A stretch of DNA of 63,098 nucleotides, filler included, from Globobulimina sp. (taxonomy: Eukaryota): assembly GCA_003354225.1 (NCBI GenBank). It is 11 parts of 11 records of this genome, joined end to end, with 100 filler letters (N's around TTAATTAATTAA, not from the genome) between each part and the next. Parts side by side here need not be neighbours in the genome. Positions count along the whole stretch, not along the records: positions 57,466 to 63,098 come from PIVH01000484.1; 10 more parts are not named here. One strand, given 5' to 3'. Below the pieces are notes generated by a model, which saw only the letters and a program-made list of their open reading frames with translations, made no database searches and had not been told where the DNA came from. Shown here in pieces: positions 4,981 to 63,098 of the stretch (position 1 is its first letter; each line of letters opens with the position of its first letter). A program made the position numbers and the translations under genes.

Positions 4981-5664
4981 TTAATCCGTAATATCTTGCA
5001 TTTTTTTCACGATTCCTAAATTTGCAGTCTCTAAAAACTGGTCAAAATCCTTATCCTCCAATTTAAATTTAGTAATTGCTTCCTTCATTGCAAGTCTTGT
5101 ATCCCGGCCAAGTGTTTGAAATGCTTCAGAATCCGTTGGATCAGCCCTGAAAAATCGTGGCCATAACCAATAAATATCACTCATCCAAAATCGGTGTGCG
5201 GATTGATTCAAATACCAATACATTTTAACCTTATTCCTAAAATATAAATGGTAACTCATCAAAAATTGATATCCATTCGCACTCTCAAAACCACCCAAAT
5301 CCATTGCCAATCTCGGCATTCTTAACAGAAACTCTTTCGTGTTTGCTGCGAAACACTCATTTAATACAAAGGCATATCGACTTGACAGTGTATCACATTT
5401 CTTTGGACAGATTAAGTACATCCTATCATTCCATGTTTTATCTGTATTCGTGTCATCCACCATTCTCTTATTTGAAATATGCGCTGGATTCCTCCTATCA
5501 ATTATCAATATATACCGTTTATGTCGTTGCTGTTTATACGTCTGATGCTTATCAAATAACTCATTAATTTGATGCCTTATACGGTCCACACTTTCAATAT
5601 CTGTATTTATCGCTGCACGAAAAAAACAATCTTTTCCTTCAGTATATTCGGATTCTTTAACATT
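4981..5664 (-). CDS. Hypothetical protein, probably 5'-truncated at the contig end
   Basis: 202-aa ORF with globular, aromatic-rich composition; no family recognised. Confidence 0.55.
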   Translation of the reverse strand, partial: NVKESEYTEGKDCFFRAAINTDIESVDRIRHQINELFDKHQTYKQQRHKRYILIIDRRNPAHISNKRMVDDTNTDKTWNDRMYLICPKKCDTLSSRYAFVLNECFAANTKEFLLRMPRLAMDLGGFESANGYQFLMSYHLYFRNKVKMYWYLNQSAHRFWMSDIYWLWPRFFRADPTDSEAFQTLGRDTRLAMKEAITKFKLEDKDFDQFLETANLGIVKKMQDITD

Positions 5665-5764
5665 NNNNNNNNNNNNNNNNNNNNNNNNNNNNNNNNNNNN
5701 NNNNNNNNTTAATTAATTAANNNNNNNNNNNNNNNNNNNNNNNNNNNNNNNNNNNNNNNNNNNN
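5665..5764. other. Artificial contig linker (N44-TTAATTAATTAA-N44). Identical linkers at 11423-11522, 17174-17273, 22922-23021, 28667-28766, 34411-34510, 40153-40252, 45892-45991, 51631-51730 and 57366-57465
   Basis: Same 100-nt spacer with stops in all six frames. Intervening contig lengths never increase (5664, 5658, 5651, 5648, 5645, 5644, 5642, 5639, 5639, 5635, 5633). Confidence 0.99.
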
Positions 5765-18175: not shown

Positions 18176-21100
18176 TCAGCCAGGGAGTAAGTCTGGCTCC
18201 ATGCTCACCGATTGCTGAAACATCCCGGCGAGGTTGTTTATGGTATCAAACGAGATACCATTTGTGAACTGAAATGATCTGTATTTGGCATACTGTGTTG
18301 AATTATAATGAGCATTTAAATAGTTGGAGTTATTGGGATGCATTCTTCCTATCTCTGCCAATTTATCTGCCACATTATTGAATGGCTGCTGCTTCGGTTT
18401 AGTATGTGATTTGACTTTCCAGAGTATGCTCTCACTTTTTTTTATGTATTTTTGTGTATTGATAAACAGATTGGAATGGGCTAACTTATTTATTCTATGT
18501 GGAGTGATGATCAGTGGGACGAAGTTGTATAAGGAATCAGTAAATATGATTTTTCTTCGATTATTGGTGTCAATGTTGCAGTATTTTATGAGAAAGTCAG
18601 ATTTATGGATGGCAAATAGCTCTCCAAAGTGGTTGGTTTGGGCTCCTATGGGTTGCGAGAAGCAGTGAATGGTGTTGTCGTCCAATATGAATATACCAAT
18701 GCCGGTGGTGTTTGTTCTTGGATCATGGGATGAGTCCGTAGCTATTATTAAGTCATGGGGCTGCAGTCTATTTTTATTTGCATGCCATTCAGTGATGTTT
18801 CGATTTCGAGTGTGATATAAGGGCATTTTGGAGGGCATGGTAATATGTTTGTTTCTCATTCTGGTGAGGTTCAATTTATTTTGGTTTAGTCGGAATATGT
18901 TGAATATCCAGCGGTGAGTTTGTGAGATTAGATTCCGATACAACGTGTATTTGTCGACATTTATGTTTATTCTTTTGTGTTTGTAGACAAATTTATTAGT
19001 CTCTGAATCATAAACATTAGCACCACATAGGATTTTCCAGAAGCGGGACTTGTGGACATTTACATTGCGACAAAGCTCAATCAATCTTTGCATATACAGT
19101 TGATTGTGTATTTTATTTATGGCGGATCCATTTTGGGCAAAGATGAAACTGGCATGATACCAATAGTCACGGCGTAATGCATCCAGTACAGGACACATGA
19201 CTGCAAGATGTAATTCTAATGGTTTGTCAATATTATTATGGCACATATTGCAGTATTTATCATATTGGTTGAAGTTATAAAACAATTCGCGGTATTTTTC
19301 AATCATCGGTGCATTGACATAATCGGCCAACTCATTTATTTCATACATATTCATCGGTCTGTAGTCACTAGTGACATGATTTAGTATTTTTAATGGGTGA
19401 TATTTATTTAATTTATTGAGGATGTATTTATGTTGCGTCTCGATTATGATCGGTCGCAGTTCATGCGGTTGGGAGACTGTATCAAATGGATCAATCATCT
19501 GGACAGAATTTTGTGTTTGCTCTACAACAATGGGTAGCCACTGTCTTTTCAATGCAGCATATTGCTTATATAATTTATGGTGATTTATATGGGACAATTG
19601 CGCCCATTTATGCATGAGGGATACATTTGGAATGTGTAACAATTTCCAATAAAAGACTAATTTTAAGGAAACCCATCTTTCAAAAGGCGTTGGGATGCCA
19701 GCCCATAAATATAGTTGTTCAGGGACGAAGTTCTTTATATTGGTCTGTATTTTGATCGCATTTAACTGTTTCTGGGTCGCCTCGGCTAAGTTTATGTGGT
19801 CACAGTCCAATATCTGCGCAAAAATCTCCGTATAGACCAGATAAAACGTTTTCAGGATTCGTATCTTGTCATCCAATGAAATATAATCATGGTTAAAGTC
19901 TAGGGAGGTTAATATTCGTGCTTTGTTGTCCAGTTTCTTTAGAAAGTGTTTGTTAGTGTGTTTAGTGGAGACCAGATTTGAGTCATCATAGCTGCACAAC
20001 ATGGCACCTAAGTAACGCATAAATGTTGTGCAGTTTAGCGTATCTCCATTCAAACTCAGTTTAAGATGCATCACCGATGGGCTATATCCACGATCATAGC
20101 GTATGTTACGCCACATTATTGGAAACGGTTTATTTGTTATGTCATTATAAAAATCATTATGTTTTTTAAACAACGCGAGATATTTGGACGGGATCTCTGC
20201 TTTATCATAGGCACGAATTTGATTATGAACATCTATTGCCATTATTCTATTATTCACAGGTTTCTGTATTAATATCATTGGAGCGGGTTTATTATGGTGG
20301 ACTGCGTCAGTTTCATAGTATTCATTGTTTATTAATATTATATCATTTATATTATAAGTATCTATATTATTTTTATTAATTGTGTCATCATTATATATCA
20401 TTGTCATGCATTTTTTATTATTGAATCGATAGTTCCATTGCTTACTATGACGTTCGCATATTTTTATTGAATTATTTAGGTGCGAGATTTTATTGGCGGT
20501 CAATATAATATCATCGGCATAGAAGATACACGCTATTTTCTCATTGGGGTCAGGCGAAAATGCACCATTCCCAGATGCCTGCAGTTCAAAAATCATATCA
20601 TTGAGGAATGCCGCGTACAACACAGGGGACAGAACCGACCCTTGTAACACACCATTATGCAGTACGAATTTATTAGAGATAAACGGGAGATCTCTTATTG
20701 CGGCATGCGAGTTATTGTAAACTGCTTTAATTATTTTGCAAATATGGATGGGAATATCGAAGTTAGTGTGTAATTTGTAAATTAATCCTTTGCGCCAGAC
20801 TGTGTCGAAAGCTTTTCGTATATCCAGAAGAGCACAATATAGCGGGATATCTCTCATTTTTGCTGTTTCAGCTATCAAGTTTAGTGCACCTATTTGTTCT
20901 GGCACTCCTCTTTTAGAGCGGTTGCCACCTTGTAAAATGTGAAGGTTTGCTCTGAATTTATGTGAAATGCACATTTCCCACAGTACCAATCGTTCGTACG
21001 CCTTAAATATTATTGGTAGGAGAGTTATTGGTCGATATTGGTTTGGAGTGCAGCCATTTGGGGTTTTTAGAATTGGGATAATCGAACCCAACCTGAAGTA

Positions 21101-22921
21101 GTATGGGATATAATAAGTACTATTCCACACATTATACAGTGTGCACAGTATCTGGTTTATGAGAGTTTGGTTGGTCTTTAGGTGGATAGTCTTAATGCCA
21201 TCGTATCCCGGTGCACTGTTAGGGTTTGCCTGTTTTATTGCAAGCTCAATGGATTTGAACTTACTTACATTGGGAGCAGGTATTTCGACACATTCCTGCT
21301 TCTGTTCATTTTCTTGTGTTATAGTGCGATCCGGCAGATATCCAGGAGTTTGACGTTGAATATCAATTATTACGTCATTATCAGTATCCGTATCACCGTC
21401 AGTATCATGTTCTAAGTTATACAGTTCATTCAGTATCGGCTGCGTTGGAGGGAGGTAATTTGGGTCAAAGTGGGGTGTTAGGCCTTCCTCCATCTCGTTA
21501 TCATCAGGAAAGTGGCACTCACCACTAAATATTGGCAATGTTGGCGGTTCAGTTATCTCCCGTTCATTGTCTGGCTTTTTTTGCTTATTTGGGATGAAGA
21601 CTAGTTCGTTTGTTACAAATTCATTCAAATTGCTGTCAAACTGGTTGATGTCATCTATTTTATCATTGGTTATTGGGTCCGCCATCGGTCCACATATTGA
21701 TCCAAAGAATTGTTGCAAAGCGGTGTTTTTATCCATTATCTTATTTTTATATTTCAAGAACGGCTCATCAACTACAAAATCCTTATTCTTATTGTATCTT
21801 TTAAATGTTTTTAATTTATTCGAATGATTCAGATCATTGAAACGGATGGTATTTTGCGTCAATCTATTTTGCTTATTATGGACAAACTCTTTTTCTGCCT
21901 CAACTATCAAATTATGCATTTCATTGGTATTTGTATTTGTATTCATGAAAAGTCGTTGTTTTATATTTAGGGACATCTGTTTCGAGGACATATTGGTCCA
22001 ATTATTGGCCGCGTCATAATCAACAACACCAAATGCTTTAATTGTTGCGAGGTGAATTATGTACATAGTTGATATGTACTCTCTTTCAGATTCTTTTTGG
22101 TAAAATGTTGTGTTTGTGCTGAACTTCTGTAGGTGCCGGGCTCTGTTTTTCAGGATATTTTGGTGCAATTTCAACAGCGCGTCATTGGGTGCATACTGTC
22201 GTAGCACATAGTGTTTGTCAATAATATTGGTTTGGCATTTTATGTTATTTGGCGTAAATATCACTGGTCTGTGGTCCATAAACACAGGATGTGTATCAAC
22301 ACGCATTGATTTGATAGAATTTAGTTCTGCAGTGATTACGTAATCTATTATTGAACCACCAGTGTTACCGGCACCTTTCGCGAGATATGTCAGGAACTTT
22401 GGGGCAAACTGAGGATTCGCTATTTTCAGCTGGGTATTATCAAGCATTTTCTTCATATATTTGTAGTGCGAATTGGTGGCATGATCCATAGTCATGTTAC
22501 CCATACGGGCATTGAAGTCACCGATTATATACATATCGTTACATTCATTTTTAAATTTATTAATATCATTTGTTAATGTCTCATAAAAGTCAGCGCTACG
22601 TTTGGCCATTTGCGGCTTATATGTTCTCGTATAATTAACGGCAATGTAAGTTGGTTTATTATTATTGGTATTTTCGATCGCAATCCATGCAGTATTATGG
22701 CCTCTCGTTTTTTTTATTAATCGGATTTTGTTTTTTAGAGTCATTTTATGGTAAATCAGTATGCCACCAACGTTCTTGGGGTTATTTGTGGTGACTGGGG
22801 ATTTATGGACAATTAATTTGTATCCTGGCAAGCTCCAATCCGGTCTGTGAACCCTTCGCGTGTCAATTAAGAGAATGATATCCAATTTATGGTGAATTAC
22901 GAGTTGCTGCATGTATGGGTG
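18176..22921 (-). mobile_element. Non-LTR retrotransposon ORF2: APE endonuclease, reverse transcriptase, Cys/His motif and RNase H; 5'-truncated by the contig end
   Basis: GGILIY, IIGDFNA, IIDYV and DHRPV (APE). SAPGYDG, YRPITLL, LDIRKAFDTV, GVLQGSVLSP, FYADD and YLG (RT). CNMC..HLAVMC. ATDSS, GELFAI, FTDS, VKSH and NNVADKLA (RNase H). 1578 codons without a stop. Confidence 0.95.
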
Positions 22922-49342: not shown

Positions 49343-51625
49343 TTATCTTGTTGCAAATTTATGAATAGTATTTTTTAATTGTGTCTGTTTATCAAATGGT
49401 GCGTTTTTTAATTGTATTTTCAACCAATTTATAGATTTTTTATCAGATTCATTCATTCGTAATTGCTTAAAAATATATCTCCGTATTTTCTGATAATCAT
49501 AAATGTACGAAAACGCTAAACATACAAAATTAATCAATTCAGGATAATGTCGTCTCAATTCGAGAAATGCATTGCACGACAAATCAACAAATGTATTATA
49601 ATTGTGTTTGCCCACTAACTCATGAAAGTTTTTTGTAATTCCAAATTTATTCGCATCTAATCCTGTTATGGTGTCCCCCAAAACATAATTCATATCAATA
49701 TGGAATAACGTACAATCCGTTGTACGTATTAATATATTATCAAAATGTCGATCTCGAACACCCATTATATACGACGCTATATACGAACCAGCTGCTGTCG
49801 AAATTAGATTTGTGCACAGCTTTTCTTTGAATTTCAACCGGTCTTTCAATGATAATACATCTCGCAACGGAATACAATCTGGGATCAATTCAATACATCC
49901 AAACAGTTTACCCATTGGTATCACATTGTAGGTCAAACATTTGACTCCATTCAATTGCTTTATATTACAAAACAAATGATTTATCCATTTAAGCACCAAC
50001 ATGCAACTTTTGTCCTTCCTCAAATCGTCACCGTACTTTAATATGCAAGTTGAGGATAAAAACTCCACATTCCCTTTATCCGTCGCATAACAATCAATAA
50101 GTAATGGTTTGCTGTTTGAATTTATGATTTTCTTTACAAATATCCTGCGTAATGGAGATGATAATTGCTTGACGGGATCGCGTAAGATCGTATTCACTCC
50201 AATGATAAAGCAATCATTGTCACGCAACTGTTTTCGTGAAGCAATATCATACCAAAACGCAACTGCATCCTTCGGACTGTCGCCATTATCTTCTTTGGTA
50301 TCATCAGTAAGATCTACATCACCGTCAGCGCACAACCCCTCAAATACAGACTTTACACACATAATATCGCTATATGCTGAAATAAAGAATCTCACTGCTT
50401 GTCTCAGATGGGATTGCCCCACAATTCTATCACGCAATTTATGCAATAGTTTGAGTCTCCATTCAAGCGCATCACACTGACACACTGTGAACGCTATCAA
50501 TGGTAAAAAGTGGCATAATACATCACAACGCGCATTGATGATGGTATCAACTACGTCGCCATTCCTATCATCTGTACACTTTAATATCTCCAGCAAAATA
50601 GACTCATGTTTCTGCACAGACTCTTCATATATTTGCAAGGAAACACGTGGATGTTTCCAACGTTGTTGTAACTCTGCATAAACCTGCGAAGCGAATGAGA
50701 AATTAGTTGGCGATGAGGTTGTATTGCCAGTCTTATTATGCTGTGTCTGTGACGATAATATCTTATGTTTTTCTGCTGGTAATTTATACAAAGTTATCCG
50801 ACGCGATGGTGGAGCTAGAAAGGTATCATTTGTTTGTTTATAGTTTGCTGATAAGGGACTGCTTATTAATGGACTGGTTATACTCTGTTTCATTAAACTG
50901 TTGTCCGTAGGCAATGATATGGAGACTGCTGATGATTGCCAAGGCTTTGAAATTGAGAGTTGATGTTTGTGTCTTTTACTCTTTGTTAGTTTGAGCTGAT
51001 TCTTATGTTTGTATGAAGAGAAAAACGAGTTGGATAAATTGCGGCGTTTGTTATGTTTTGATTGTTTCCCAGTTATTAATATAGATTTTGTCCTACGACT
51101 TTTAGCTTTTCTTTTTTTTAATGGTTTTGGAGGTTTTGATGCTGATTTGGTACTTTTGGTGGCGTTGAAGAATGAAGATGTTTTTTTACTGTTTCTTGAT
51201 TTGTGTGGTCTGGCTGCAGCAACTTCAAATAATTCATTTAAGGGAGTGTTTGGCGATTTGACTTTTTTTGATGTGAAGAACATGTTAGATATGTGACGAG
51301 ATTTTGAGTTTGGTTTTGATTTCGATCGATTGACTCTTGTACGTTTTGTAGATTTGGCTGTGTAGAGCGGTTTATTTCTACCAAGTTTTGGGACAGATTT
51401 ACTACGTTTGGATGATGATGATGGTGGAATTGATAGCGGCGATAAAGTTAAATTGGTTGGTTTTAATTTTGATTTTGATGGTTTGGGAATGGCTCTTGGA
51501 GTTAAACATAATTCACAGTTGGCACAATTATTTTGATTGAGATATGTACATATTGTACATGCCCATTCTGATCCTATTAATGGTGTAGGTGGTAATGAAT
51601 ATGATTGCGAGTCAGATTTATTCAT
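49343..51625 (-). CDS. PI3/PI4-kinase-family protein with N-terminal RanBP2-type zinc finger and a long basic disordered linker
   Basis: WACTICTYLN....NCELC; NSNSKPL, LKYGDDLRKD, YNVIP, GCIEL, YIMGVRDRHFDNIL and FHIDMNY. Confidence 0.85.
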   Translation of the reverse strand: MNKSDSQSYSLPPTPLIGSEWACTICTYLNQNNCANCELCLTPRAIPKPSKSKLKPTNLTLSPLSIPPSSSSKRSKSVPKLGRNKPLYTAKSTKRTRVNRSKSKPNSKSRHISNMFFTSKKVKSPNTPLNELFEVAAARPHKSRNSKKTSSFFNATKSTKSASKPPKPLKKRKAKSRRTKSILITGKQSKHNKRRNLSNSFFSSYKHKNQLKLTKSKRHKHQLSISKPWQSSAVSISLPTDNSLMKQSITSPLISSPLSANYKQTNDTFLAPPSRRITLYKLPAEKHKILSSQTQHNKTGNTTSSPTNFSFASQVYAELQQRWKHPRVSLQIYEESVQKHESILLEILKCTDDRNGDVVDTIINARCDVLCHFLPLIAFTVCQCDALEWRLKLLHKLRDRIVGQSHLRQAVRFFISAYSDIMCVKSVFEGLCADGDVDLTDDTKEDNGDSPKDAVAFWYDIASRKQLRDNDCFIIGVNTILRDPVKQLSSPLRRIFVKKIINSNSKPLLIDCYATDKGNVEFLSSTCILKYGDDLRKDKSCMLVLKWINHLFCNIKQLNGVKCLTYNVIPMGKLFGCIELIPDCIPLRDVLSLKDRLKFKEKLCTNLISTAAGSYIASYIMGVRDRHFDNILIRTTDCTLFHIDMNYVLGDTITGLDANKFGITKNFHELVGKHNYNTFVDLSCNAFLELRRHYPELINFVCLAFSYIYDYQKIRRYIFKQLRMNESDKKSINWLKIQLKNAPFDKQTQLKNTIHKFATR

Positions 51626-54851: not shown

Positions 54852-56438
54852 ATGGCCGTCATGCTTTTATTGACATCAACAATCATATTCAAATTATCAT
54901 TACCAAGCACCACTATGAATCATCCATATTACATATCACAGAATCGACTGTCTTTCGCTGACTCTGAACTATTTTGCAAGGTGCAATGTTCCAGTCATCT
55001 TGCATCGATCCATAATGAAATTGATTACAATCGATCTCTACAACAAATCCGGGAAAACAATTATGAAAATACTGACAATATTTGGATTGGTTTACATGAC
55101 ATTCACACTGAAACACTCTACCAATGGACCGATAATTCATCCTTCAACTTTGCGAGTGACATATCCGGCGGTGAATGGCCGTGGAAATCTAATTCGCCAA
55201 ACAATGCCAACGTCAATCATGGCGGACAGAATTGTATTCAACTTTCTTTTTATTTTAATTATTTGTTTGACGACACTGAGTGTAATAATATGAATACAAT
55301 TCTATGCAATAAATGTGATAGCACCATACATAAATATTTGATAATCAATCAACAAGTTTCGAACTGGAATGATGCACTTCAACATTGCTATGATATTGGC
55401 ACAAATCTAGCAGCCATACACTCAGATTATCACTACAGACAAGCAACATTTTTGTGTTCGATTACAAATAGTGACAGTAACAGTTGTTGGATCGGAGAAA
55501 GTTCATTTATTAAACATAAAATACATCAAAGTATATCCAATCAATATAGGATTGCTTTGATTGGGGAACAATTAACAGTGCAGTTAATGGATGAAAAGAG
55601 ATATTTTTTATGTGATATGCCATCAGAGATATATTACAAACAACAATGGCATATAATTTACGGGAATTGGAATGATACCCATTTTATGGCTGTTATGTAC
55701 GGCAAACAATGGATTAATACAAATGGAGTATTGGTCATTGAATATGTGGTTAAAATTATGGACATTATTGCTGATATAAATGATGCTACATCGGGCGTAT
55801 TGATATTTAATCAGCATTCAATATGTCATGGTTATTATGCAGGTATTTTATATGGAGGATCTGATGGACGTTTTTATGTATTTATAGCGGAAATGAATAT
55901 ATATACAAGCAATTATAATAGGAGTAACATACATATTTTGCACAATGTTTCATTGAGTGAGAGCGTTGATGGATATTATTTGTTGAGAGTGGAAATAATA
56001 AATAACAGTATGTATCATATTTCAGTGAATAATGTTAAATATATTGTTTATAAGATTGTAGATATCGATAATGATACAATGAATGATACGGATAATTTTG
56101 GCTTATCTGGTCATATCGGACTATGTCATTCTAATTTGCAAATTGAGATTAAATCTCTATATGTTTCTGGTTCTAAGATATCAATGAATAATTCTGAAAT
56201 AATGGAGGATTGTATGCGTAGCATTGGAATGAATGATGAATATGCGACTAGCTATAGAAAACAGATGAGATCATTTGGATTTTTAGTGTCATTCGTGATT
56301 ATAGTTGTGGTATTTTTGTGTGCAGTGGTTTGCGTTTGCTTGATTTGTCCGTGGAGAGAAGATAATGTCATTCGCAGGAAACTACGCACCAGAGATGTAT
56401 TATATAATCAAATCGTTCAACACATTTTCAAATTTTGA
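54852..56438 (+). CDS. C-type lectin domain type I membrane protein (two CTLDs)
   Basis: Signal peptide; FC...HLASIH, WIGLHD, YQWTD, PNN..QNC and DDTEC; second CTLD with NLAAIHS and CWIG; C-terminal TM. Confidence 0.85.
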   Translation: MAVMLLLTSTIIFKLSLPSTTMNHPYYISQNRLSFADSELFCKVQCSSHLASIHNEIDYNRSLQQIRENNYENTDNIWIGLHDIHTETLYQWTDNSSFNFASDISGGEWPWKSNSPNNANVNHGGQNCIQLSFYFNYLFDDTECNNMNTILCNKCDSTIHKYLIINQQVSNWNDALQHCYDIGTNLAAIHSDYHYRQATFLCSITNSDSNSCWIGESSFIKHKIHQSISNQYRIALIGEQLTVQLMDEKRYFLCDMPSEIYYKQQWHIIYGNWNDTHFMAVMYGKQWINTNGVLVIEYVVKIMDIIADINDATSGVLIFNQHSICHGYYAGILYGGSDGRFYVFIAEMNIYTSNYNRSNIHILHNVSLSESVDGYYLLRVEIINNSMYHISVNNVKYIVYKIVDIDNDTMNDTDNFGLSGHIGLCHSNLQIEIKSLYVSGSKISMNNSEIMEDCMRSIGMNDEYATSYRKQMRSFGFLVSFVIIVVVFLCAVVCVCLICPWREDNVIRRKLRTRDVLYNQIVQHIFKF

Positions 56439-57465: not shown

Positions 57466-57528
57466 GACTTTTGAGAAATCATTACCATCTGGTAATCCGT
57501 TTGTTTCAGTATCAAAAATTGCGAACAT
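57466..57528 (-). CDS. N-terminus of a DEDDh/DnaQ-like 3'-5' exonuclease, truncated by the contig end
   Basis: Manual translation MFAIFDTETNGLPDGNDFSKV contains the ExoI motif FDTETxGLP. Confidence 0.7.
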
Positions 57529-57637
57529 TTTATATTAAAAGTTAAGAATATAAAAAGGTTTTTGTTATTTTAAAAGAGTTTTATTTTAGAGTTTGTTGAT
57601 AAAAATGGATAATTATGAGTTGTAGATATATTACGAA

Positions 57638-57645
57638 TCAATTTT
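57638..57645 (-). promoter_or_regulatory. AAAATTGA Mimiviridae-type early promoter motif
   Basis: Exact octamer on the minus strand, ~110 nt upstream of the exonuclease ATG. Short AT-rich motif, so a chance match is possible. Confidence 0.5.
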
Positions 57646-57664
57646 AATTTTGATTAATTATTTT

Positions 57665-57997
57665 TCAACGCCAATTAAGTGCTTTACATACATAAAGAGG
57701 TGTTTTTGGAACAAGTACTCCATTAGTAAAATATATAATTTTTAGTATTTTATCATTATGTAAACCAGTTGCAATCTCAGGCGTTGTATTTAAAATAAAA
57801 TTTTGGTTTGGGATTCTGCCAGTTATCATTTGGCCTGGATTTTTGTTACTTATAATTTCAATATTTATTTGCCCAGTAATAGCAAATTTATTATCAAGGA
57901 AAGCATCGGATATTTTCCATGCAAGAGTGCAATGATGGTCACATGTATTTTGTAAATCATCGTGATTTGAAACAATTCGTAATGTTGGTGTTGTCAT
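57665..57997 (-). CDS. Hypothetical protein (putative viral)
   Basis: 110-aa ATG ORF with an AT-rich leader. Confidence 0.6.
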   Translation of the reverse strand: MTTPTLRIVSNHDDLQNTCDHHCTLAWKISDAFLDNKFAITGQINIEIISNKNPGQMITGRIPNQNFILNTTPEIATGLHNDKILKIIYFTNGVLVPKTPLYVCKALNWR

Positions 57998-58216
57998 TTG
58001 TTATATATATTAACCAAATATTTTGTTTTTGTGAATTATGATAAACAAATTAATATTAATCATTGGTTATATCTATATTACGATTTAACATAGATTTAAC
58101 ATAGATAAGAAGATTTTGATTTTCTTATTTATAGTGTTTGGATATAAATGGATATTATCGTAAAATATGAATAGAATATTTAAAAAAAAACTTAAAAAAA
58201 ATTAAAAATAGACTTA

Positions 58217-58675
58217 TTATGTTGAGTGATAAGAAATTGGACCTGGACCAGGAATTCTTGGACCAATAGTACAAGTTGAAATACTATTAACATATTCAAA
58301 CCAAACGACTTTTCTCTTTTTTAATCTAGTTACAACTTGTGGAACTTGTTGAATACAGATTATTTGTGATCTTACCATATGTGTTCCCTCTTGATTTACA
58401 ACTTCAATATAAGCAGGACCATTATTTATCATTTGTTGTAATCGTGAGCTATTTATTTTCCAATTGCCTGTTCGTTGATGAACACGAGTTCGTTCTAAAC
58501 TATCAACTGTTCTTACACGTAATGTATTTATAGGTGTTGGTGTTGGTTCTGATAATTCCTCTTTAATTTCAAGAACTTCAACATTTTCTTTTTTTTCTTC
58601 TTTTTGTTCAGTATAGAATTGAGTAAGTATTGAACCATCAGGGCTTTCGTATATTGATTTTACTGCTTGTGTCAT
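58217..58675 (-). CDS. Hypothetical protein (putative viral), likely start MTQAV
   Basis: ATG preceded by a TATA-rich leader; the upstream in-frame extension is low-complexity. Confidence 0.6.
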   Translation of the reverse strand: MTQAVKSIYESPDGSILTQFYTEQKEEKKENVEVLEIKEELSEPTPTPINTLRVRTVDSLERTRVHQRTGNWKINSSRLQQMINNGPAYIEVVNQEGTHMVRSQIICIQQVPQVVTRLKKRKVVWFEYVNSISTCTIGPRIPGPGPISYHST

Positions 58676-58915
58676 TTTCTTGTATATATTAGTATAATAT
58701 ATTATTTTTAAGTGAATTTTAATTCTCTTTTGGATATTTTTTATATATCGTATGGATACGATATTGGATATTATCCATATTTTATCCACATAATAACTTT
58801 ATAATATCCAATAATATCCAATAATTTCACATGTGTTTGTTAATTATAGGAAAAATCATTTTTTTTCGTTTAATTACCGTAAAAATAAAATATTTGCTAA
58901 TAATATAGATTTAAT

Positions 58916-60388
58916 ATGTCTAATTTTTTAATAAATGAACTTTCTAATTTAACAACAACCGAAAATAATGCCGTTTCATTTTTATCTACAAAACACCCTC
59001 TCGTTGATGCTTACTTCAAATTTGTAAGAGGTATTAACGATAATACAATCATAACTTACTTGGAAAAATGTTGGGAATATTCACCATTAATGACAATAAA
59101 ATTAATATTTCAAACAAGGGATATACGAAAAGGAAAAGGTGAAAGATATATTTTTCGTTATGCTATGCAATGGTTGGCAATGATTCATCCGACTTATTAT
59201 GAAAAAACATTCCCTTTAATAATGGAATATGGGCGAGCTGATGATATTATCATTAGTTCTTATAATACACCTTTAAAAAATGTTACATTAACTTATATAT
59301 GGGAACAATTACAAAATGATTTAATTAATATGAAGGAAGGCAAACCAATCAGTTTTATGGCTAAATGGTTTCCAAGTGAAAAATCACATCCTTGTTATAA
59401 TGACTTATGTAAAGTTGCTGACATAAATAAAGCAACAATGCGAAAAACATACATGACACCATTACGAAGCTATTTAAATATCGTTGAAACAATATTAAGT
59501 TCAAAGGATTATGATAAATTAAATGAAGATTATTTATCAAAAATACCTTCTCAGGCAATGAGAAAATTAAAAAAAGCATTACAAAAACACAGCCCTTATT
59601 GGTTAAGTTATATTAATAAATTACAAACTGGTGAAGCAAAGGTAAATGCTAAAACTTGTAATCCTAATGAATTAGTTCATGATTCAATGGAAGAAAATAA
59701 TGAAATAACTGAAAAACAATGGCAAGCAAAAATTGATGAATTAAGAAAATTAGGATCATTAGGCAATACATTAGTAGTATGTGATACTTCTGGTAGTATG
59801 TCGGGAATACCAATGGAAGTTTCAATAGCATTAGGCATACTAATTTCAAGATTAGTTAATGAGTCATGGAGAGATTTTGTAATAACATTTCAAAGTGACC
59901 CACATTTTGTAAAAATACCAAATTGTGAAGAAGTTGGATTACATAAAACAATAAATTTTTTATTAGATCAAGGACTATTTCCATGGGGTATGAAAACAAA
60001 TGTCATAAAAGTATTTAAACGAATATTAAAACGGGCACGAAGATTAAATATGATACAAGAAGAAATGCCTGAACGAATTATTGTAATAAGTGATATGCAA
60101 TTTGGTGAAGCAACCACTCATAATACTACCACTAATTTTGAGGAGATTAAAGAAATGTATAAATCATGTGGTTATGTGATGCCACAAATGGTTTTTTGGA
60201 ATGTCCGTGCGAATACTGATGATTTCCCATTAACTTCCGATGAAAATGGTGTAATGATGGTATCTGGGTTTTCACCTTATGTATTAAAAAATATCATAGA
60301 AGCAAATGATATTAATCCATTACAATTTGTATTAGATTTATTAAATAATGAAAGATATGATATTGTAGAAAAAAGATATGATAAATAA
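58916..60388 (+). CDS. DUF2828-type protein: TROVE/Ro60-like helical domain plus C-terminal vWA (MIDAS) domain
   Basis: FQTRDIRKGKGER, YGRADD, AKWFPSE, SKIPSQAM, KVNAKT, QWQ, VVCDTSGSM (DxSxS), ITF, WGMKTN, VISDMQF, FWNV and VSGFS. Confidence 0.85.
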   Translation: MSNFLINELSNLTTTENNAVSFLSTKHPLVDAYFKFVRGINDNTIITYLEKCWEYSPLMTIKLIFQTRDIRKGKGERYIFRYAMQWLAMIHPTYYEKTFPLIMEYGRADDIIISSYNTPLKNVTLTYIWEQLQNDLINMKEGKPISFMAKWFPSEKSHPCYNDLCKVADINKATMRKTYMTPLRSYLNIVETILSSKDYDKLNEDYLSKIPSQAMRKLKKALQKHSPYWLSYINKLQTGEAKVNAKTCNPNELVHDSMEENNEITEKQWQAKIDELRKLGSLGNTLVVCDTSGSMSGIPMEVSIALGILISRLVNESWRDFVITFQSDPHFVKIPNCEEVGLHKTINFLLDQGLFPWGMKTNVIKVFKRILKRARRLNMIQEEMPERIIVISDMQFGEATTHNTTTNFEEIKEMYKSCGYVMPQMVFWNVRANTDDFPLTSDENGVMMVSGFSPYVLKNIIEANDINPLQFVLDLLNNERYDIVEKRYDK

Positions 60389-60399
60389 TAATATTTTTA

Positions 60400-61000
60400 A
60401 AATATGTGTATCTTGTTAATAATCAAGATTGTCTCTTGTCAAAGAGATATACAGCAAAACACACTTAGTCTGGGTGAAATCCCTTGTTAGAGTTGATATG
60501 TTAAAGTACCAGTTATTTAATTAACAAAACTTAAAACTAAAAGGATAACAAACACCATTAATGAAACTACCGAAAAAGTTAATCTATTAGGTAGTGAATT
60601 TAGTGAAAGTAATTTATCCAAGATGTCTCTTGTCAAAGAGACACGCAGCAAACAAAATAGAGCAGTCGTAATTGACTAATTAAGGTGTCGTAACTCCTAA
60701 CTGATTATTCCCAACAGAATATCTAACAAATTACACTTCTCTTGTCAAAGAGACACACAGCAAAAACACTACTAGGATGAAGATAATATTTAATAAGAAA
60801 TTAAATATTTTTCTTCAACTTTTTCGTCACCTTAATTATTTATTAAATTAAAATAGGTGGTTATCCCACGAAAGAGAATGTGTTTAAAAAATTTTTGTTG
60901 AAAGTGAAATGAACAACTATAAGGGATAAACTCCGGTTAAGTTGAACATTTGACGTTCATTTTGAGTAAAGTTCTAAATGAAGCTGGACCAGCAACAGAT
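60400..61000 (+). ncRNA. Putative structured ncRNA array downstream of the DUF2828/TROVE-like gene
   Basis: No ORF, visibly GC-richer than the flanking intergenic DNA, with repeat units and many stems (see findings). Strand is inferred from the adjacent gene. Confidence 0.6.
60432..60764 (+). repeat. Three copies of a 27-nt repeat TCTCTTGTCAAAGAGA-YAY-RCAGCAAA (60432-60458, 60626-60652, 60738-60764) with 167- and 85-nt unique spacers
   Basis: The first 16 nt are identical in all copies and self-complementary (TCTCTT-GTCA-AAGAGA); CAGCAAA is invariant. Confidence 0.95.
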
Positions 61001-61037
61001 TTTTTTATAAACTCTTAAATAATAATCTGATTATTAT

Positions 61038-61068
61038 TTATTTTTTTAAATATTATTTAAAAAAATAA
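61038..61068. terminator. Perfect AT palindrome, candidate Mimiviridae-type 3'-end hairpin (second copy at 61593-61624)
   Basis: TTATTTTTTTAAATA-T-TATTTAAAAAAATAA, located after the array; the second copy follows the stop of ORF 61115-61588. Confidence 0.6.
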
Positions 61069-61088
61069 TTATTTGATAATATCATTTT

Positions 61089-61117
61089 AAATAAAAATAT
61101 TTACATATAATATAATG
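61089..61117 (+). promoter_or_regulatory. Repeated promoter/leader AAATA(A)AAATATTTACATATAATATA(A)ATG; copies also at 61647-61675 and 62277-62304
   Basis: Near-identical motif abutting the ATG of three consecutive genes; a related AAAATAAAATATTT..TAATATA lies upstream of 58916. Confidence 0.8.
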
Positions 61118-61588
61118 GATACTTGTGGGATTAATGTAGGGACAGATGTAGAGAATATAATTTATATTTATTTATATGAAATGTTAGATTGTGGAAAAAA
61201 ACTTCATTATCCAGATGAAAAATGTTTAGCAATTTTAAAAAGTGGTAACAAAAAAGGAGCAAATTGTAATAGAATAAATTGTAAATATCACATGAATTAC
61301 AAACGAAAACTAAAAAAATTATTAATATTAAAAGGAGTTTTTAAGACAGGATTTAAATCACCGATATCTTCTCTATTTGAATTTAAATCAACGTGGTGTA
61401 TGAAATTGGTTTGTAAATATCACTCAAAGAAAAAAGGTAGAGGACGACCAAGAAAACATAACAGAGAAGAACCATGGATATTAAAAAAAAGAGGACGAAA
61501 AAAGAAAAGTGAAAAATTAATATGTAATTTAAATGAATTAAAACGAAACCAAATACGAAACCAAATACGAAACCAAATACGAAACTAA
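61115..61588 (+). CDS. Small basic CCCH-type zinc-finger protein with AT-hook (putative viral), paralog of 62302
   Basis: CLAILKSGNKKGANCNRINCKYH, a second C...CKYH, KKGRGRPRK and C-terminal (RNQI)n. Confidence 0.75.
   Translation: MDTCGINVGTDVENIIYIYLYEMLDCGKKLHYPDEKCLAILKSGNKKGANCNRINCKYHMNYKRKLKKLLILKGVFKTGFKSPISSLFEFKSTWCMKLVCKYHSKKKGRGRPRKHNREEPWILKKRGRKKKSEKLICNLNELKRNQIRNQIRNQIRN
61543..61585 (+). repeat. 12-bp tandem repeat ACGAAACCAAAT x3.5
   Basis: Exact copies at 61543, 61555 and 61567, partial copy at 61579. Confidence 0.9.
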
Positions 61589-61672
61589 CATGTTATTTTT
61601 TTTAAATATTATTTAAAAAAATAAATTACTTGATAATATCGTTTAAAATAAAAATATTTACATATAATATAA

Positions 61673-62278
61673 ATGGACACCTTAGATAAATATAAATTAG
61701 AACATTCTAAAAAATTTAAAAAAACATTAACAATTATTAAGAATATTAAAAAAAAATACTATGTAACAATGTTACACGGAATGGAAATGAGTTATAGTAT
61801 ACAAGGATTAGAAAATCCAACGCTAAAATCTATTGGTTTCACTTTTGATTTTTTTGCAGATATAATGAATAGTTTAAAAGAAGAAGAAGAAAATAAATAT
61901 GGTAATTATGAAAAATACCATGAAGAAATAATATATTATATACGAAAACAATTCGTTCATATATTTTCAAGTTATTTTGGTCTTCATTCATACATTGATA
62001 AAAATAACTATTTAGTATTAGATATATATATTAAACAATATCATTTTAAAGAATATCGTAATTTAGTTAAAGAATATGAAGAATATTTTGAGAAAAAATA
62101 TTTTGAGAATGATTTAAAAAATAATTATAAACATTTAAATGTAAATGAATTAAAACAACAATGTAAAGAAAAAAAAATTAAAGGTTATTCAAAATATAAA
62201 AAACAAGAATTAATAGAATTATTATTAATAAATGAAACTGAGTTTGAAATAGATACTGATTTCTTAAATTATTATTAA
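61673..62278 (+). CDS. Hypothetical protein with C-terminal Rho_N/HeH-like nucleic-acid-binding motif (putative viral)
   Basis: YKHLNVNELKQQCKEKKIKGYSKYKKQELIELLL. Confidence 0.75.
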   Translation: MDTLDKYKLEHSKKFKKTLTIIKNIKKKYYVTMLHGMEMSYSIQGLENPTLKSIGFTFDFFADIMNSLKEEEENKYGNYEKYHEEIIYYIRKQFVHIFSSYFGLHSYIDKNNYLVLDIYIKQYHFKEYRNLVKEYEEYFEKKYFENDLKNNYKHLNVNELKQQCKEKKIKGYSKYKKQELIELLLINETEFEIDTDFLNYY

Positions 62279-62301
62279 ATAAAATATTTACATATAATAT
62301 A

Positions 62302-62811
62302 ATGGATACTTGTGGAATTAATGTAGGGAAAGATGTAAAGAATATAATTTATATTTATTTATATGAAATGATAGATTGTGGAAAAAAACTTAATTTAGAT
62401 GAAACTTGTTTAGCAATTTTGAAAAGTGGTAATAAAAAAGGAGAAAAATGCAATAGGATAAATTGTAAATATCACATGAATTACAAACGAAAAATACAAA
62501 AATTATTAATATTAAGAAGAGCTTTAAAACCATATAACAAAAATAGTTTAGATATAATATTTGGTGGTAGGTCTAATAATAAATGCTTGAAATCAGTTTG
62601 TCAATATCATGGATATTATGGAATGAAACCAAGAATATTAAAAAAAAGAGGAAGAAAAAAGAAAAGTGAAAAATTAAAATGTAGTTTAAATGAATTAAAA
62701 TTAACTCAACTGCGTGAGACTAGATTTGGTGGTAAATGTATAATAGTTTATTTACCAATTGACATAAGAATGTATGAGTTTAGAATAAGTAGACCACTAA
62801 TTATGAGTTAA
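62302..62811 (+). CDS. Small basic CCCH-type zinc-finger protein (putative viral), paralog of 61115
   Basis: MDTCGINVG..V.NIIYIYLYEM.DCGKKL, CLAILKSGNKKGEKCNRINCKYH and ILKKRGRKKKSEKL are shared with 61115. Confidence 0.75.
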   Translation: MDTCGINVGKDVKNIIYIYLYEMIDCGKKLNLDETCLAILKSGNKKGEKCNRINCKYHMNYKRKIQKLLILRRALKPYNKNSLDIIFGGRSNNKCLKSVCQYHGYYGMKPRILKKRGRKKKSEKLKCSLNELKLTQLRETRFGGKCIIVYLPIDIRMYEFRISRPLIMS

Positions 62812-62903
62812 ACTTATCTTTAAATCATATTTTTATTATTAATTTTTTAAATCAATTGAAATGTTTTAAAAAATTAAATAAAACTTTAAATAAAAATTAT
62901 TCA

Positions 62904-63098
62904 TTAAACGTCATAGCATTCCATTTTGTGTTTATCAATTATATCAGTTAGTTTTTTGATATCTTTTTCTTTAATAAAGGTTTCCATATCCTCATAAAAC
63001 TTATCAATATCTTTATTGAAACTGCTATTTATAAACCAGTCATGTGGTGTATCTTTACAATTATTATCGTAATATTGATCAATAGTATATTCTTCAAG
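62904..63098 (-). CDS. 3' end of a hypothetical protein
   Basis: Open minus frame from the window end: LEEYTIDQYYDNNC...KMECYDV*. Confidence 0.6.
   Translation of the reverse strand, partial: LEEYTIDQYYDNNCKDTPHDWFINSSFNKDIDKFYEDMETFIKEKDIKKLTDIIDKHKMECYDV

Follow-up and report, generated by a model that had tools for sequence, protein, structure and literature searches.

Three short palindromic repeats lie 42 nucleotides (nt) past the stop codon of a gene for a Ro60-like protein, on the same strand, in a 63,098-nt stretch of DNA from Globobulimina sp. (GenBank assembly GCA_003354225.1; hereafter the window), within the part that comes from record PIVH01000484.1 (57466-63098). They are copies of a conserved RNA module, a local hairpin followed by a short conserved tail, which recurs beside genes for homologues of the same protein (Pfam family DUF2828) in phages and in contigs of giant-virus type. 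Probably the repeats belong to a non-coding RNA that is functionally tied to this DUF2828 Ro60-like ring protein, whose recognition site they are likely to be. Their position matters because Ro60 genes keep their Y RNAs within a few kb: in the bacteria and phages covered by the relevant parts of two reports, the Y RNAs lie within 4 kb of the Ro60 gene, mostly on the same strand (PMC4201824; PMC12135203).

The most economical mechanism would start from a module consisting of a stem-loop of 6-8 base pairs (bp), a loop beginning with G and, 2-4 nt later, a single-stranded (A)CAGCAA(U) tail, in which hairpin and tail together would be the site bound by the Ro60-like protein. A helix with a 3′ single strand is the kind of ligand that Ro60 accepts in its structures with misfolded RNA (e.g. 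2i91). Presumably transcribed from the + strand, a 620-nt RNA, or pieces of it, would present three such sites between unique structured segments, and could take the part of a Y RNA by scaffolding, tethering or regulating the protein.

A local hairpin with a conserved tail

A repeat search places TCTCTTGTCAAAGAGA at 60432, 60626 and 60738, with spacings of 194 and 112 nt, where 0.02 matches would be expected in the window; none of 100 shuffles reached three, and no further copy occurs anywhere in the 63 kb with two mismatches allowed. The conserved core extends over 27 nt (TCTCTTGTCAAAGAGA-A--CAGCAAA), with gaps of about 165 and 83 nt between cores, and every copy has a 6-8 bp stem of the covarying kind described below, a loop with G as its first base, CAGCAA 2-4 nt past the stem and the DUF2828 gene in its vicinity. 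An earlier, sequence-only reading of this DNA, all of whose coordinates and strings are correct, had already noted that each repeat folds locally. The local stems comprise 8 bp with one G-U pair, 8 bp and 6 bp in copies 1 to 3. The non-coding stretch that bears the array (60389-61006) holds no open reading frame (ORF) of at least 40 amino acids (aa) apart from a 44-aa TTG frame on the minus strand. Folding of 60400-61010 gives a minimum free energy of -137 kcal/mol on the + strand (z = -5.56, against -2.81 for the minus strand), and the unique segments between and behind the modules (60460-60622, 60654-60737 and 60766-60999) are likewise predicted to be strongly structured.

The exact repeat pattern has no match in viral contigs and none in metagenome contigs, and homologous loci were therefore fetched through the protein instead: 160 loci chosen by their DUF2828 homologue, 80 from viral contigs and 80 from metagenomes (numbered with L below). 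Since the protein governed this choice, a covariance model built from the three window copies alone (R1) searches the other loci in an independent direction. It matched L042 (E 1.9e-5), L051 and L052 (both 4.9e-4), and a further four matches fall below 0.01. Of the 41 locus matches at E up to 10, 36 share the strand of the gene and most are within 2 kb of it; the metagenome loci yielded further matches, including L140 and L159, the latter an array. The modules thus collected share a stem of variable sequence (GUCUCUU/AAGAGAC in the window; elsewhere AGUCAC/GUGACU in L054, GUUUUCU/AGGAAAC in L159 and, in many of the phage loci, AUAUCUU/AAGAUAU), a loop that starts with G and is unconserved past that base, and an (A)CAGCAAU(U) tail, in which C, G and C are invariant and three A positions are conserved to 90% or more, in phage and giant-virus-type loci alike.

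Covariation speaks for the local hairpin. In a curated alignment of 31 modules, 82% of the cells are paired and double changes occur at all eight pairs; the covariation score is 0.496, against 0.185 for shuffled alignments (0 of 500 shuffles reach the observed value) and 0.06-0.14 in controls whose 3′ partner had been slid off its proper alignment. All of 34 copies from eight loci have an uninterrupted local stem of 6-9 bp, in a search built to find such stems but one in which a stem was always found. The module is also strand-specific, on account of its G-U pairs and its tail, which bears on the notion that the repeats act as DNA, be it as iterons, as origin or recombination sites, or as a CRISPR-like array of repeats and spacers. 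The window array does resemble a CRISPR array in its tandem, palindromic hairpin repeats with unique sequence between them and in the same ambiguity between local and neighbour pairing, and in L072 repeats of 33 nt alternate with unique spacers of 20-27 nt. Yet on the opposite strand the G-U pairs would turn into A-C mismatches, the conserved tail lacks symmetry and is shared with single modules embedded in transcribed tRNA-like genes, the window spacers are structured and uneven, and scans of six ORFs of the contig (five to six of them with Pfam, all six with PHROGs) turned up no cas-like family. A DNA-level role is so improbable on these grounds that the CRISPR and iteron readings were rejected.

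The sequence-only reading went further and proposed that local folding competes with pairing between neighbouring repeats, such that a precursor cut in the GTCA loops would release units in which the right arm of a repeat pairs with the left arm of its successor to form a closing stem, flanked by unpaired CAGCAA, in the manner of Y RNAs. Two of its cross pairings (60442-50 with 60623-31, 9 bp; 60636-41 with 60738-43, 6 bp) are indeed present but carry no independent information, because each copy is the same palindrome and the arms of tandem copies are automatically complementary between neighbours. The third (60751-57 with 60879-85, 7 bp with a G-U pair) pairs a repeat with sequence outside the repeats and is no better than chance: when the 247 nt downstream were shuffled by mononucleotides, 217 of 500 shuffles gave a duplex of at least 7 bp with the right arm and tail. 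In partition functions for the uncut 622-nt transcript, the pairs of the local hairpins have probabilities (P) of 0.80-1.00 and those between repeats at most 1.6e-4; terminal stems do form in silico in excised units (P 0.68-1.0), solely after cutting in the loops.

Homologous loci point the same way. At 10 of 26 junctions between successive array copies, cross-copy pairing loses pairs, the differences being compensated inside the copy in which they occur, and homologous modules stand singly within tRNA-like RNAs, with no neighbour copy to pair with; together these amount to the very outcome that the sequence-only reading had named as its refutation. The variable loop is a further point against a cleavage site in it, and no Y-RNA or YrlA model or motif matches the array. 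For the proposal speak the complementary arms, the adjacent Ro60-like gene and a loose parallel in phage loci, where the spacer-hairpin strand AGAUGAUU-CAGCAAUU pairs with a partner about 30 nt downstream. On balance, loop cleavage into Y-RNA-like units is very improbable, and the array is no terminal-stem Y RNA. What survives of the Y-RNA idea is its broader part, for a reason not given at the time: the adjacent gene encodes a Ro60-like protein, and the motif co-occurs with that gene family; the terminal-stem topology does not. Nor does the two-pairings ambiguity of tandem palindromes provide grounds for reading a riboswitch-like feature into the array.

The Ro60-like protein and its linkage to the module

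The protein encoded upstream, the presumed partner of the repeats, aligns over residues 1-482 of its 490 with phrog_850 (PHROG 850, 'RNA-binding protein'; E 6e-96), and 'RNA-binding' or 'Ro-like RNA binding protein' are existing labels for DUF2828 proteins in phage annotation. Its AlphaFold2 model, built with 37 homologues (predicted local distance difference test 90.9, predicted template modelling score 0.89), retrieves nothing but Ro60/TROVE structures at ranks 1-12 of a Foldseek search of the PDB, with 1yvr the best (E 1.4e-9, template modelling scores 0.62/0.59, 561 columns) and Xenopus and human Ro60, Deinococcus Rsr (2nvo) and Ro60 of phage phiLo (9kop, 9l5y) among the matches; the alignment spans the ring of helical repeats plus the vWA domain, that is, the Ro60 fold. 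By sequence, Pfam TROVE is not matched at E<=1, TROVE is absent from the 25 of 39 families listed for the 37 homologues, and a sequence search of the PDB returned a best E of 0.59, for an unrelated entry. D290, S292 and S294 are invariant in the 37 homologues and conform to DxSxS, the MIDAS-type motif (for metal ion-dependent adhesion site) of vWA domains; VWA_2 matches 26 of the 37. The closest relatives (P0002-P0004) are 53-65% identical, and a protein search of the viral contig collection found no close one. More widely, DUF2828 homologues occur in at least 374 viral contigs, in 694 of 50,697 cultured phage records (anywhere in the genome) and also in eukaryotes, for example Naegleria.

Linkage holds in the reverse direction as well. 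A strict phage-type motif (ATCTTGNNAAAGAT, 3-6 nt, CAGCAAT) occurs in 51 viral loci, a count that is not de-duplicated and includes several contigs already in the 160-locus set, and a DUF2828 gene lies within 5 kb in 32 of the 51, on the same strand as the motif in 30 of these 32; the 694 of 50,697 cultured phage records with a homologue at any distance give the scale for comparison. Other neighbours differ from locus to locus (XRN, NUDIX and glycosyltransferases in L169; BTB and 2-oxoglutarate (2OG) oxygenase in L072; HNH, NinG, ERF and DnaB in phage loci), and the Ro60-like gene is the sole neighbour common to module loci.

Two architectures can be told apart. In the giant-virus type, to which the tRNA-less, three-copy window array belongs, modules form bare arrays: at least 11 copies in L072, on the gene's strand and upstream of it, next to genes with BTB and 2OG-oxygenase domains; six or seven copies in L159, divergent from the gene and beside a D5-like primase; and two units of about 215 nt in L169, from a giant-virus metagenome-assembled genome (MAG), between the gene and an XRN exonuclease gene, again divergent. 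None of these four loci contains tRNAs, and in each the module stands beside the gene. Some of them hold further features. Within 3386-8617 of L169, the Ro60-like gene and the two module units are flanked by an XRN-type 5′-3′ exonuclease and a NUDIX gene, an RNA-decay neighbourhood. L072, a giant-virus-type contig of 394 kb, carries between its array and the Ro60-like gene two copies of an element of about 110 nt (2680-2790 and 2800-2910), whose ends look complementary by eye and might form a long imperfect stem (AAGGCGAUGUCACAUAGCU.../...AGCUGUGUAACAUCGCCUU); judged likewise by eye, this element is nearer to the classic Y-RNA topology than the modules are. In two other giant-virus-type loci, L009 (4647-5786, minus strand) and L011, a gene with collagen-like Gly-X-Y repeats adjoins the Ro60-like gene, and the repeated hairpins of these loci were rejected as modules, being the collagen-like coding repeat on the minus strand.

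In the phage type, loci carry tRNA arrays on the strand of the gene (tRNAs in 25 of 60 loci scanned), and the modules sit within abnormally long tRNA matches, seven of which span 112-120 nt in Rfam searches. The Rfam alignment of L052 (4699-4811) retains the acceptor, D and T arms in normal form and, of the anticodon stem, the three outermost pairs; the 11 inner positions are replaced by 50 nt, in which the module is followed by a small stem with an anticodon-like seven-base loop. Cultured phages provide examples: a 110-nt 'tRNA-Pseudo-GCA' of Synechococcus phage B3 holds the module (L213 3023-3061, E 2.5e-6 with a second covariance model, R2) 390 nt after gp345, a DUF2828 homologue. A 114-nt 'tRNA-Pseudo' of Aeromonas phage Ahp1_CNU-2021 holds the module too (L216 4024-4063, E 7.6e-6). 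In L042 and L060, a sigma-70-type promoter directly behind the Ro60-like gene is followed by an operon of module-bearing tRNA-like RNAs, separated by spacer hairpins that also bear CAGCAAUU, and by a terminator at the end. Looked at more closely, these operons (L042 4455-5330, L060 4455-5120) begin with a promoter of TTGACA-17-TATAAT type, contain spacer hairpins of the form UAGAUGAUU-CAGCAAUU...30 nt...AAUCAUCUA, and comprise three or four module-bearing tRNA-like RNAs and other structured RNAs before the terminator. Elsewhere among these loci, L038 has a Pistol ribozyme (2443-2508, 51 bits) upstream of its Ro60-like gene, and L047 a group I intron match (5151-5348, 53.6 bits) downstream of its own.

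These architectures also bear on whether the window array is a separate RNA gene or simply the 3′ untranslated region (UTR) of the Ro60-like mRNA, with hairpins that regulate or stabilise it in cis. The latter would suit an array directly past the stop codon, on the same strand and with no recognisable terminator between, and it would suit the 5′-leader hairpins of like apex that precede the gene at other loci, as well as a tail motif shortly before the gene in phage KVP40. It sits badly with the opposite strand of the modules in L159 and L169, with modules that follow a promoter of their own in L042 and L060, and with those inside tRNA-like RNAs. The orientation of arrays relative to the gene (downstream on the same strand in the window, upstream on the same strand in L072, and divergent in both L159 and L169) fits separate RNA genes better than a UTR element, which makes the 3′ UTR explanation distinctly unlikely. 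The leader hairpins in question are tail-less, have an apex like that of the window repeat (CUCUUGUCCAAGGGAG-like) and stand immediately ahead of the gene's ribosome-binding site in L053 (2916-2955), L059 (2952-2991) and L065 (2928-2961); in phage KVP40 (L212 3961-3988), the tail motif ACAGCAAUU occurs 13-40 nt upstream of the gene (E 0.08). Both could be autoregulatory.

Several results weigh against a functional tie between module and gene. A module was found within 3 kb of the gene in only 20 of the 160 homologous loci. The 20 loci with at least one R2 match at E<=1e-3 (not de-duplicated), which include the bare arrays of L072, L159 and L169, in themselves count in favour of the tie; R2 was trained on matches from these same loci and its E-values are rough. 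The loci closest to the window protein, L001-L012, which are of giant-virus type, contain no module by R2, and the best-matching DNA loci encode proteins just 40-41% identical to that of the window. Cultured Felixounavirus Alf5, mycobacteriophage Rose5 and Bacillus phage KoopaTroopa have no significant module match at their loci, and Aeromonas phage Ahp1 has a module with no DUF2828 gene within 4 kb. Taken with the 20 of 160 loci, these module-less cultured clades make the link between gene and module a clade-limited one. Among the strict-motif viral loci, 19 of 51 have no DUF2828 gene within 5 kb; many are short contigs, but three or more are fully flanked. The prokaryote genomes, a far larger collection, yield 118 matches of the strict motif, 80 of them in loci with full flanks, and the gene lies within 5 kb in 3 of the 118. 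The strict pattern by itself is unspecific in that collection: 22 matches share one Streptococcus-type string, and a palindromic element that has nothing to do with the module, confined to one MAG, contributes 13 distinct copies. This element, dispersed over L221-L332 in a MAG labelled Pirellulaceae, has 23-nt arms (GTAGTGGATCTTGTTAAAGATCC ... GGATCTTTAACAAGATCCACTAC) and holds the strict pattern with no relation to the module.

Motif loci without the gene would also be expected if the module were a nuclease processing or stability signal in the maturation of tRNA clusters and small RNAs, near DUF2828 genes through shared viral regions of RNA metabolism, and the phage modules and spacer hairpins that flank or occupy tRNA-like genes, in operons with their own promoter and terminator, agree with such a role. 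It is nonetheless unlikely, for the tRNA-less loci of giant-virus type (the window, L072, L159 and L169) keep the module beside the gene, a nuclease site common to bacterial and eukaryotic hosts is hard to envisage, and the linked viral loci share the strand of the gene almost without exception.

Relation to Ro60/Y RNA particles and other known systems

Ro60/Y RNA systems, from metazoan Y RNA to bacterial YrlA/YrlB, Yrn1 and phage phiLo Yrl1/Yrl2 with phiRo60, resemble the arrangement described here, in the accounts of them drawn on, in that a ring-protein gene is accompanied by adjacent genes for small structured RNAs, often in tandem and mostly on the same strand. The window array has the proximity and strand of a Y RNA gene and lacks its Rfam model, binding motif, terminal stem and tRNA-like domain, and the window protein, in contrast to Ro60, is no TROVE member by sequence. 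The Ro60-binding sequence is given as GGUCCGA in vertebrates and as GNCGAAN0-1G in YrlA in the relevant part of one report (PMC4201824). Neither is present on either strand of 60389-61114, whose + strand has two bare CGAA, about as many as chance would give on a rough estimate from base composition; the window RNA thus differs from Y RNA and YrlA in having no GGUCCGA, GNCGAAN0-1G or CGAA-bulge motif and no Rfam model match. Across the whole window there is no tRNA or tRNA-like match and no Rfam family at gathering score, 60300-61150 yields merely six weak, unrelated Rfam matches (12-21 bits) with E up to 10, and Rfam has no model for the module.

The topology differs as well. The module closes locally into a hairpin and has a single-stranded ACAGCAAU tail on its 3′ side, as opposed to the bulged stem that Y RNAs form from their ends. 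Its phage relatives include a tRNA-like body, as YrlA does in the descriptions at hand, but these bodies retain their own acceptor stem as well as a loop resembling that of an anticodon, and the module is an insertion in their anticodon arm, the reverse of the YrlA topology. Features annotated as 'tRNA-Pseudo' or 'tRNA-OTHER' in Synechococcus phages B3 and B23 and in Aeromonas phage Ahp1_CNU-2021 are the same module, there an insertion of about 40-50 nt in a tRNA-like gene of 110-114 nt, whereas the window modules are bare, with no detectable tRNA-like arms; the module thereby accounts for a class of 'pseudo-tRNA' annotations. A further comparison is with mimivirus, in which hairpins after genes, in an AT-rich viral setting like that of the window, act as 3′-end signals of transcripts and are gene-specific in sequence. 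The window sequence differs from these in being repeated and conserved across distant viruses, with a sequence-specific tail.

Jumbo-phage TROVE proteins with tRNA-like partners are mentioned in part of one article (PMC7824862). Full-text literature searches (DUF2828; TROVE/Ro60 with giant viruses, phages or cyanophages) returned no description of the module or of an RNA partner of DUF2828 proteins, with DUF2828 papers judged by title or abstract and the supplementary tables of phages scored by Chen et al. (2014) outside their scope. On sequence comparison, then, the RNA motif, its different topology and the extension to giant-virus-type genomes would be new, and a Ro60-type protein with adjacent partner RNAs would be of a known kind. 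Ro60 and its Y RNAs form a classic particle of RNA quality control, in which the RNA partners are difficult to recognise from sequence, and a short, recognisable module that travels with the gene offers a concrete candidate ligand, for instance for the protein of Synechococcus phage B3. If the tie between module and protein is real, the window would hold the first candidate Ro/Y-type particle in giant-virus-type genomes, none having turned up in the TROVE/Ro60 literature searches.

A broader proposal can be put forward only tentatively. DUF2828 proteins might constitute a second family of Ro60-like ribonucleoproteins, in phages, giant viruses and perhaps eukaryotes, with the hairpin plus ACAGCAAU module as ligand, grafted into the anticodon arms of phage tRNAs with plausible anticodon loops and strung into multi-site scaffold RNAs in giant-virus-type genomes. 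They could then serve as a virus-encoded device for RNA surveillance, decoy or repair, perhaps directed at tRNA-attacking nucleases of the host, and have been carried across host domains as a protein-RNA pair.

Genomic surroundings of the array

The window consists of 11 contigs of about 5.6 kb each, in order of descending length, chained through linkers of 44 N, 12 nt and 44 N (20 N runs of 44, in pairs about 5.7 kb apart, among them those at 5665, 11423 ... 57422). As the pieces are joined in this way, the true context of the array is 57466-63098 alone, and features on separate pieces are not neighbours. That piece has a G+C content of about 25-26%, against 29-39% in most of the remaining window, and contains the 490-codon gene on the + strand, then 726 nt without a credible ORF, then three small genes, likewise on the + strand. 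Eukaryote-like genes lie on the other pieces, among them an ORF like that of a long interspersed nuclear element with APE and RT domains (18176-22912), a PI3/PI4 kinase (49343-51625) and a C-type lectin (54852-56438).

Features of the contig that bears the array. Positions are those of the whole window; the three modules belonged to the training set of R2, so their R2 scores are not independent.
Feature	Position	Strand	Description	R2 score	Local pair probabilities
Ro60-like protein gene	58916-60388	+	490 aa; Pfam DUF2828 E 3.3e-39, DUF7788 (vWA) E 2.5e-47		
Non-coding stretch bearing the array	60389-61006	+	From the stop codon of the Ro60-like gene to a seven-T run (61000-61006)		
Module copy 1	60430-60459	+	Hairpin 60430-60449, 8 bp including one G-U, loop GTCA; ACAGCAA tail 60451-60457	37.9 bits, E 8.6e-6	0.94-0.98
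Module copy 2	60624-60653	+	Hairpin 60624-60643, 8 bp, loop GTCA; GCAGCAA tail 60645-60651	41.3 bits	0.96-1.0
Module copy 3	60738-60765	+	Hairpin 60738-60753, 6 bp, loop GTCA; ACAGCAA tail 60757-60763	41.1 bits	0.80-0.97
AT-rich 75-nt region	61041-61115	+	Upstream of the next gene, ends at its ATG; 84% identical repeat at 61598-61672 before the following gene		

CAGCAA occurs a fourth time at 60990-60995, where it shares bases with a short palindrome, GCTGGACCAGC, within 60983-61006 and is followed by the seven-T run, a possible 3′ end of the RNA locus as far as the sequence indicates. A scan of the contig for sigma-70 promoters and terminators gave a background level (59 matches, 51.3 expected) and is uninformative in a non-bacterial context. 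ORFs begin at 61115 and 61673, right after the two 75-nt repeats, and this repeat pair looks promoter-like, a shared promoter or leader that would set the 3′ limit of the RNA locus. The second of the two genes behind these repeats encodes a Rho_N/SAP-like C-terminal domain, and the first, ORF 61115-61588, has at its 3′ end four tandem copies of a 12-nt unit (AAATACGAAACC-like; 61540-61587).

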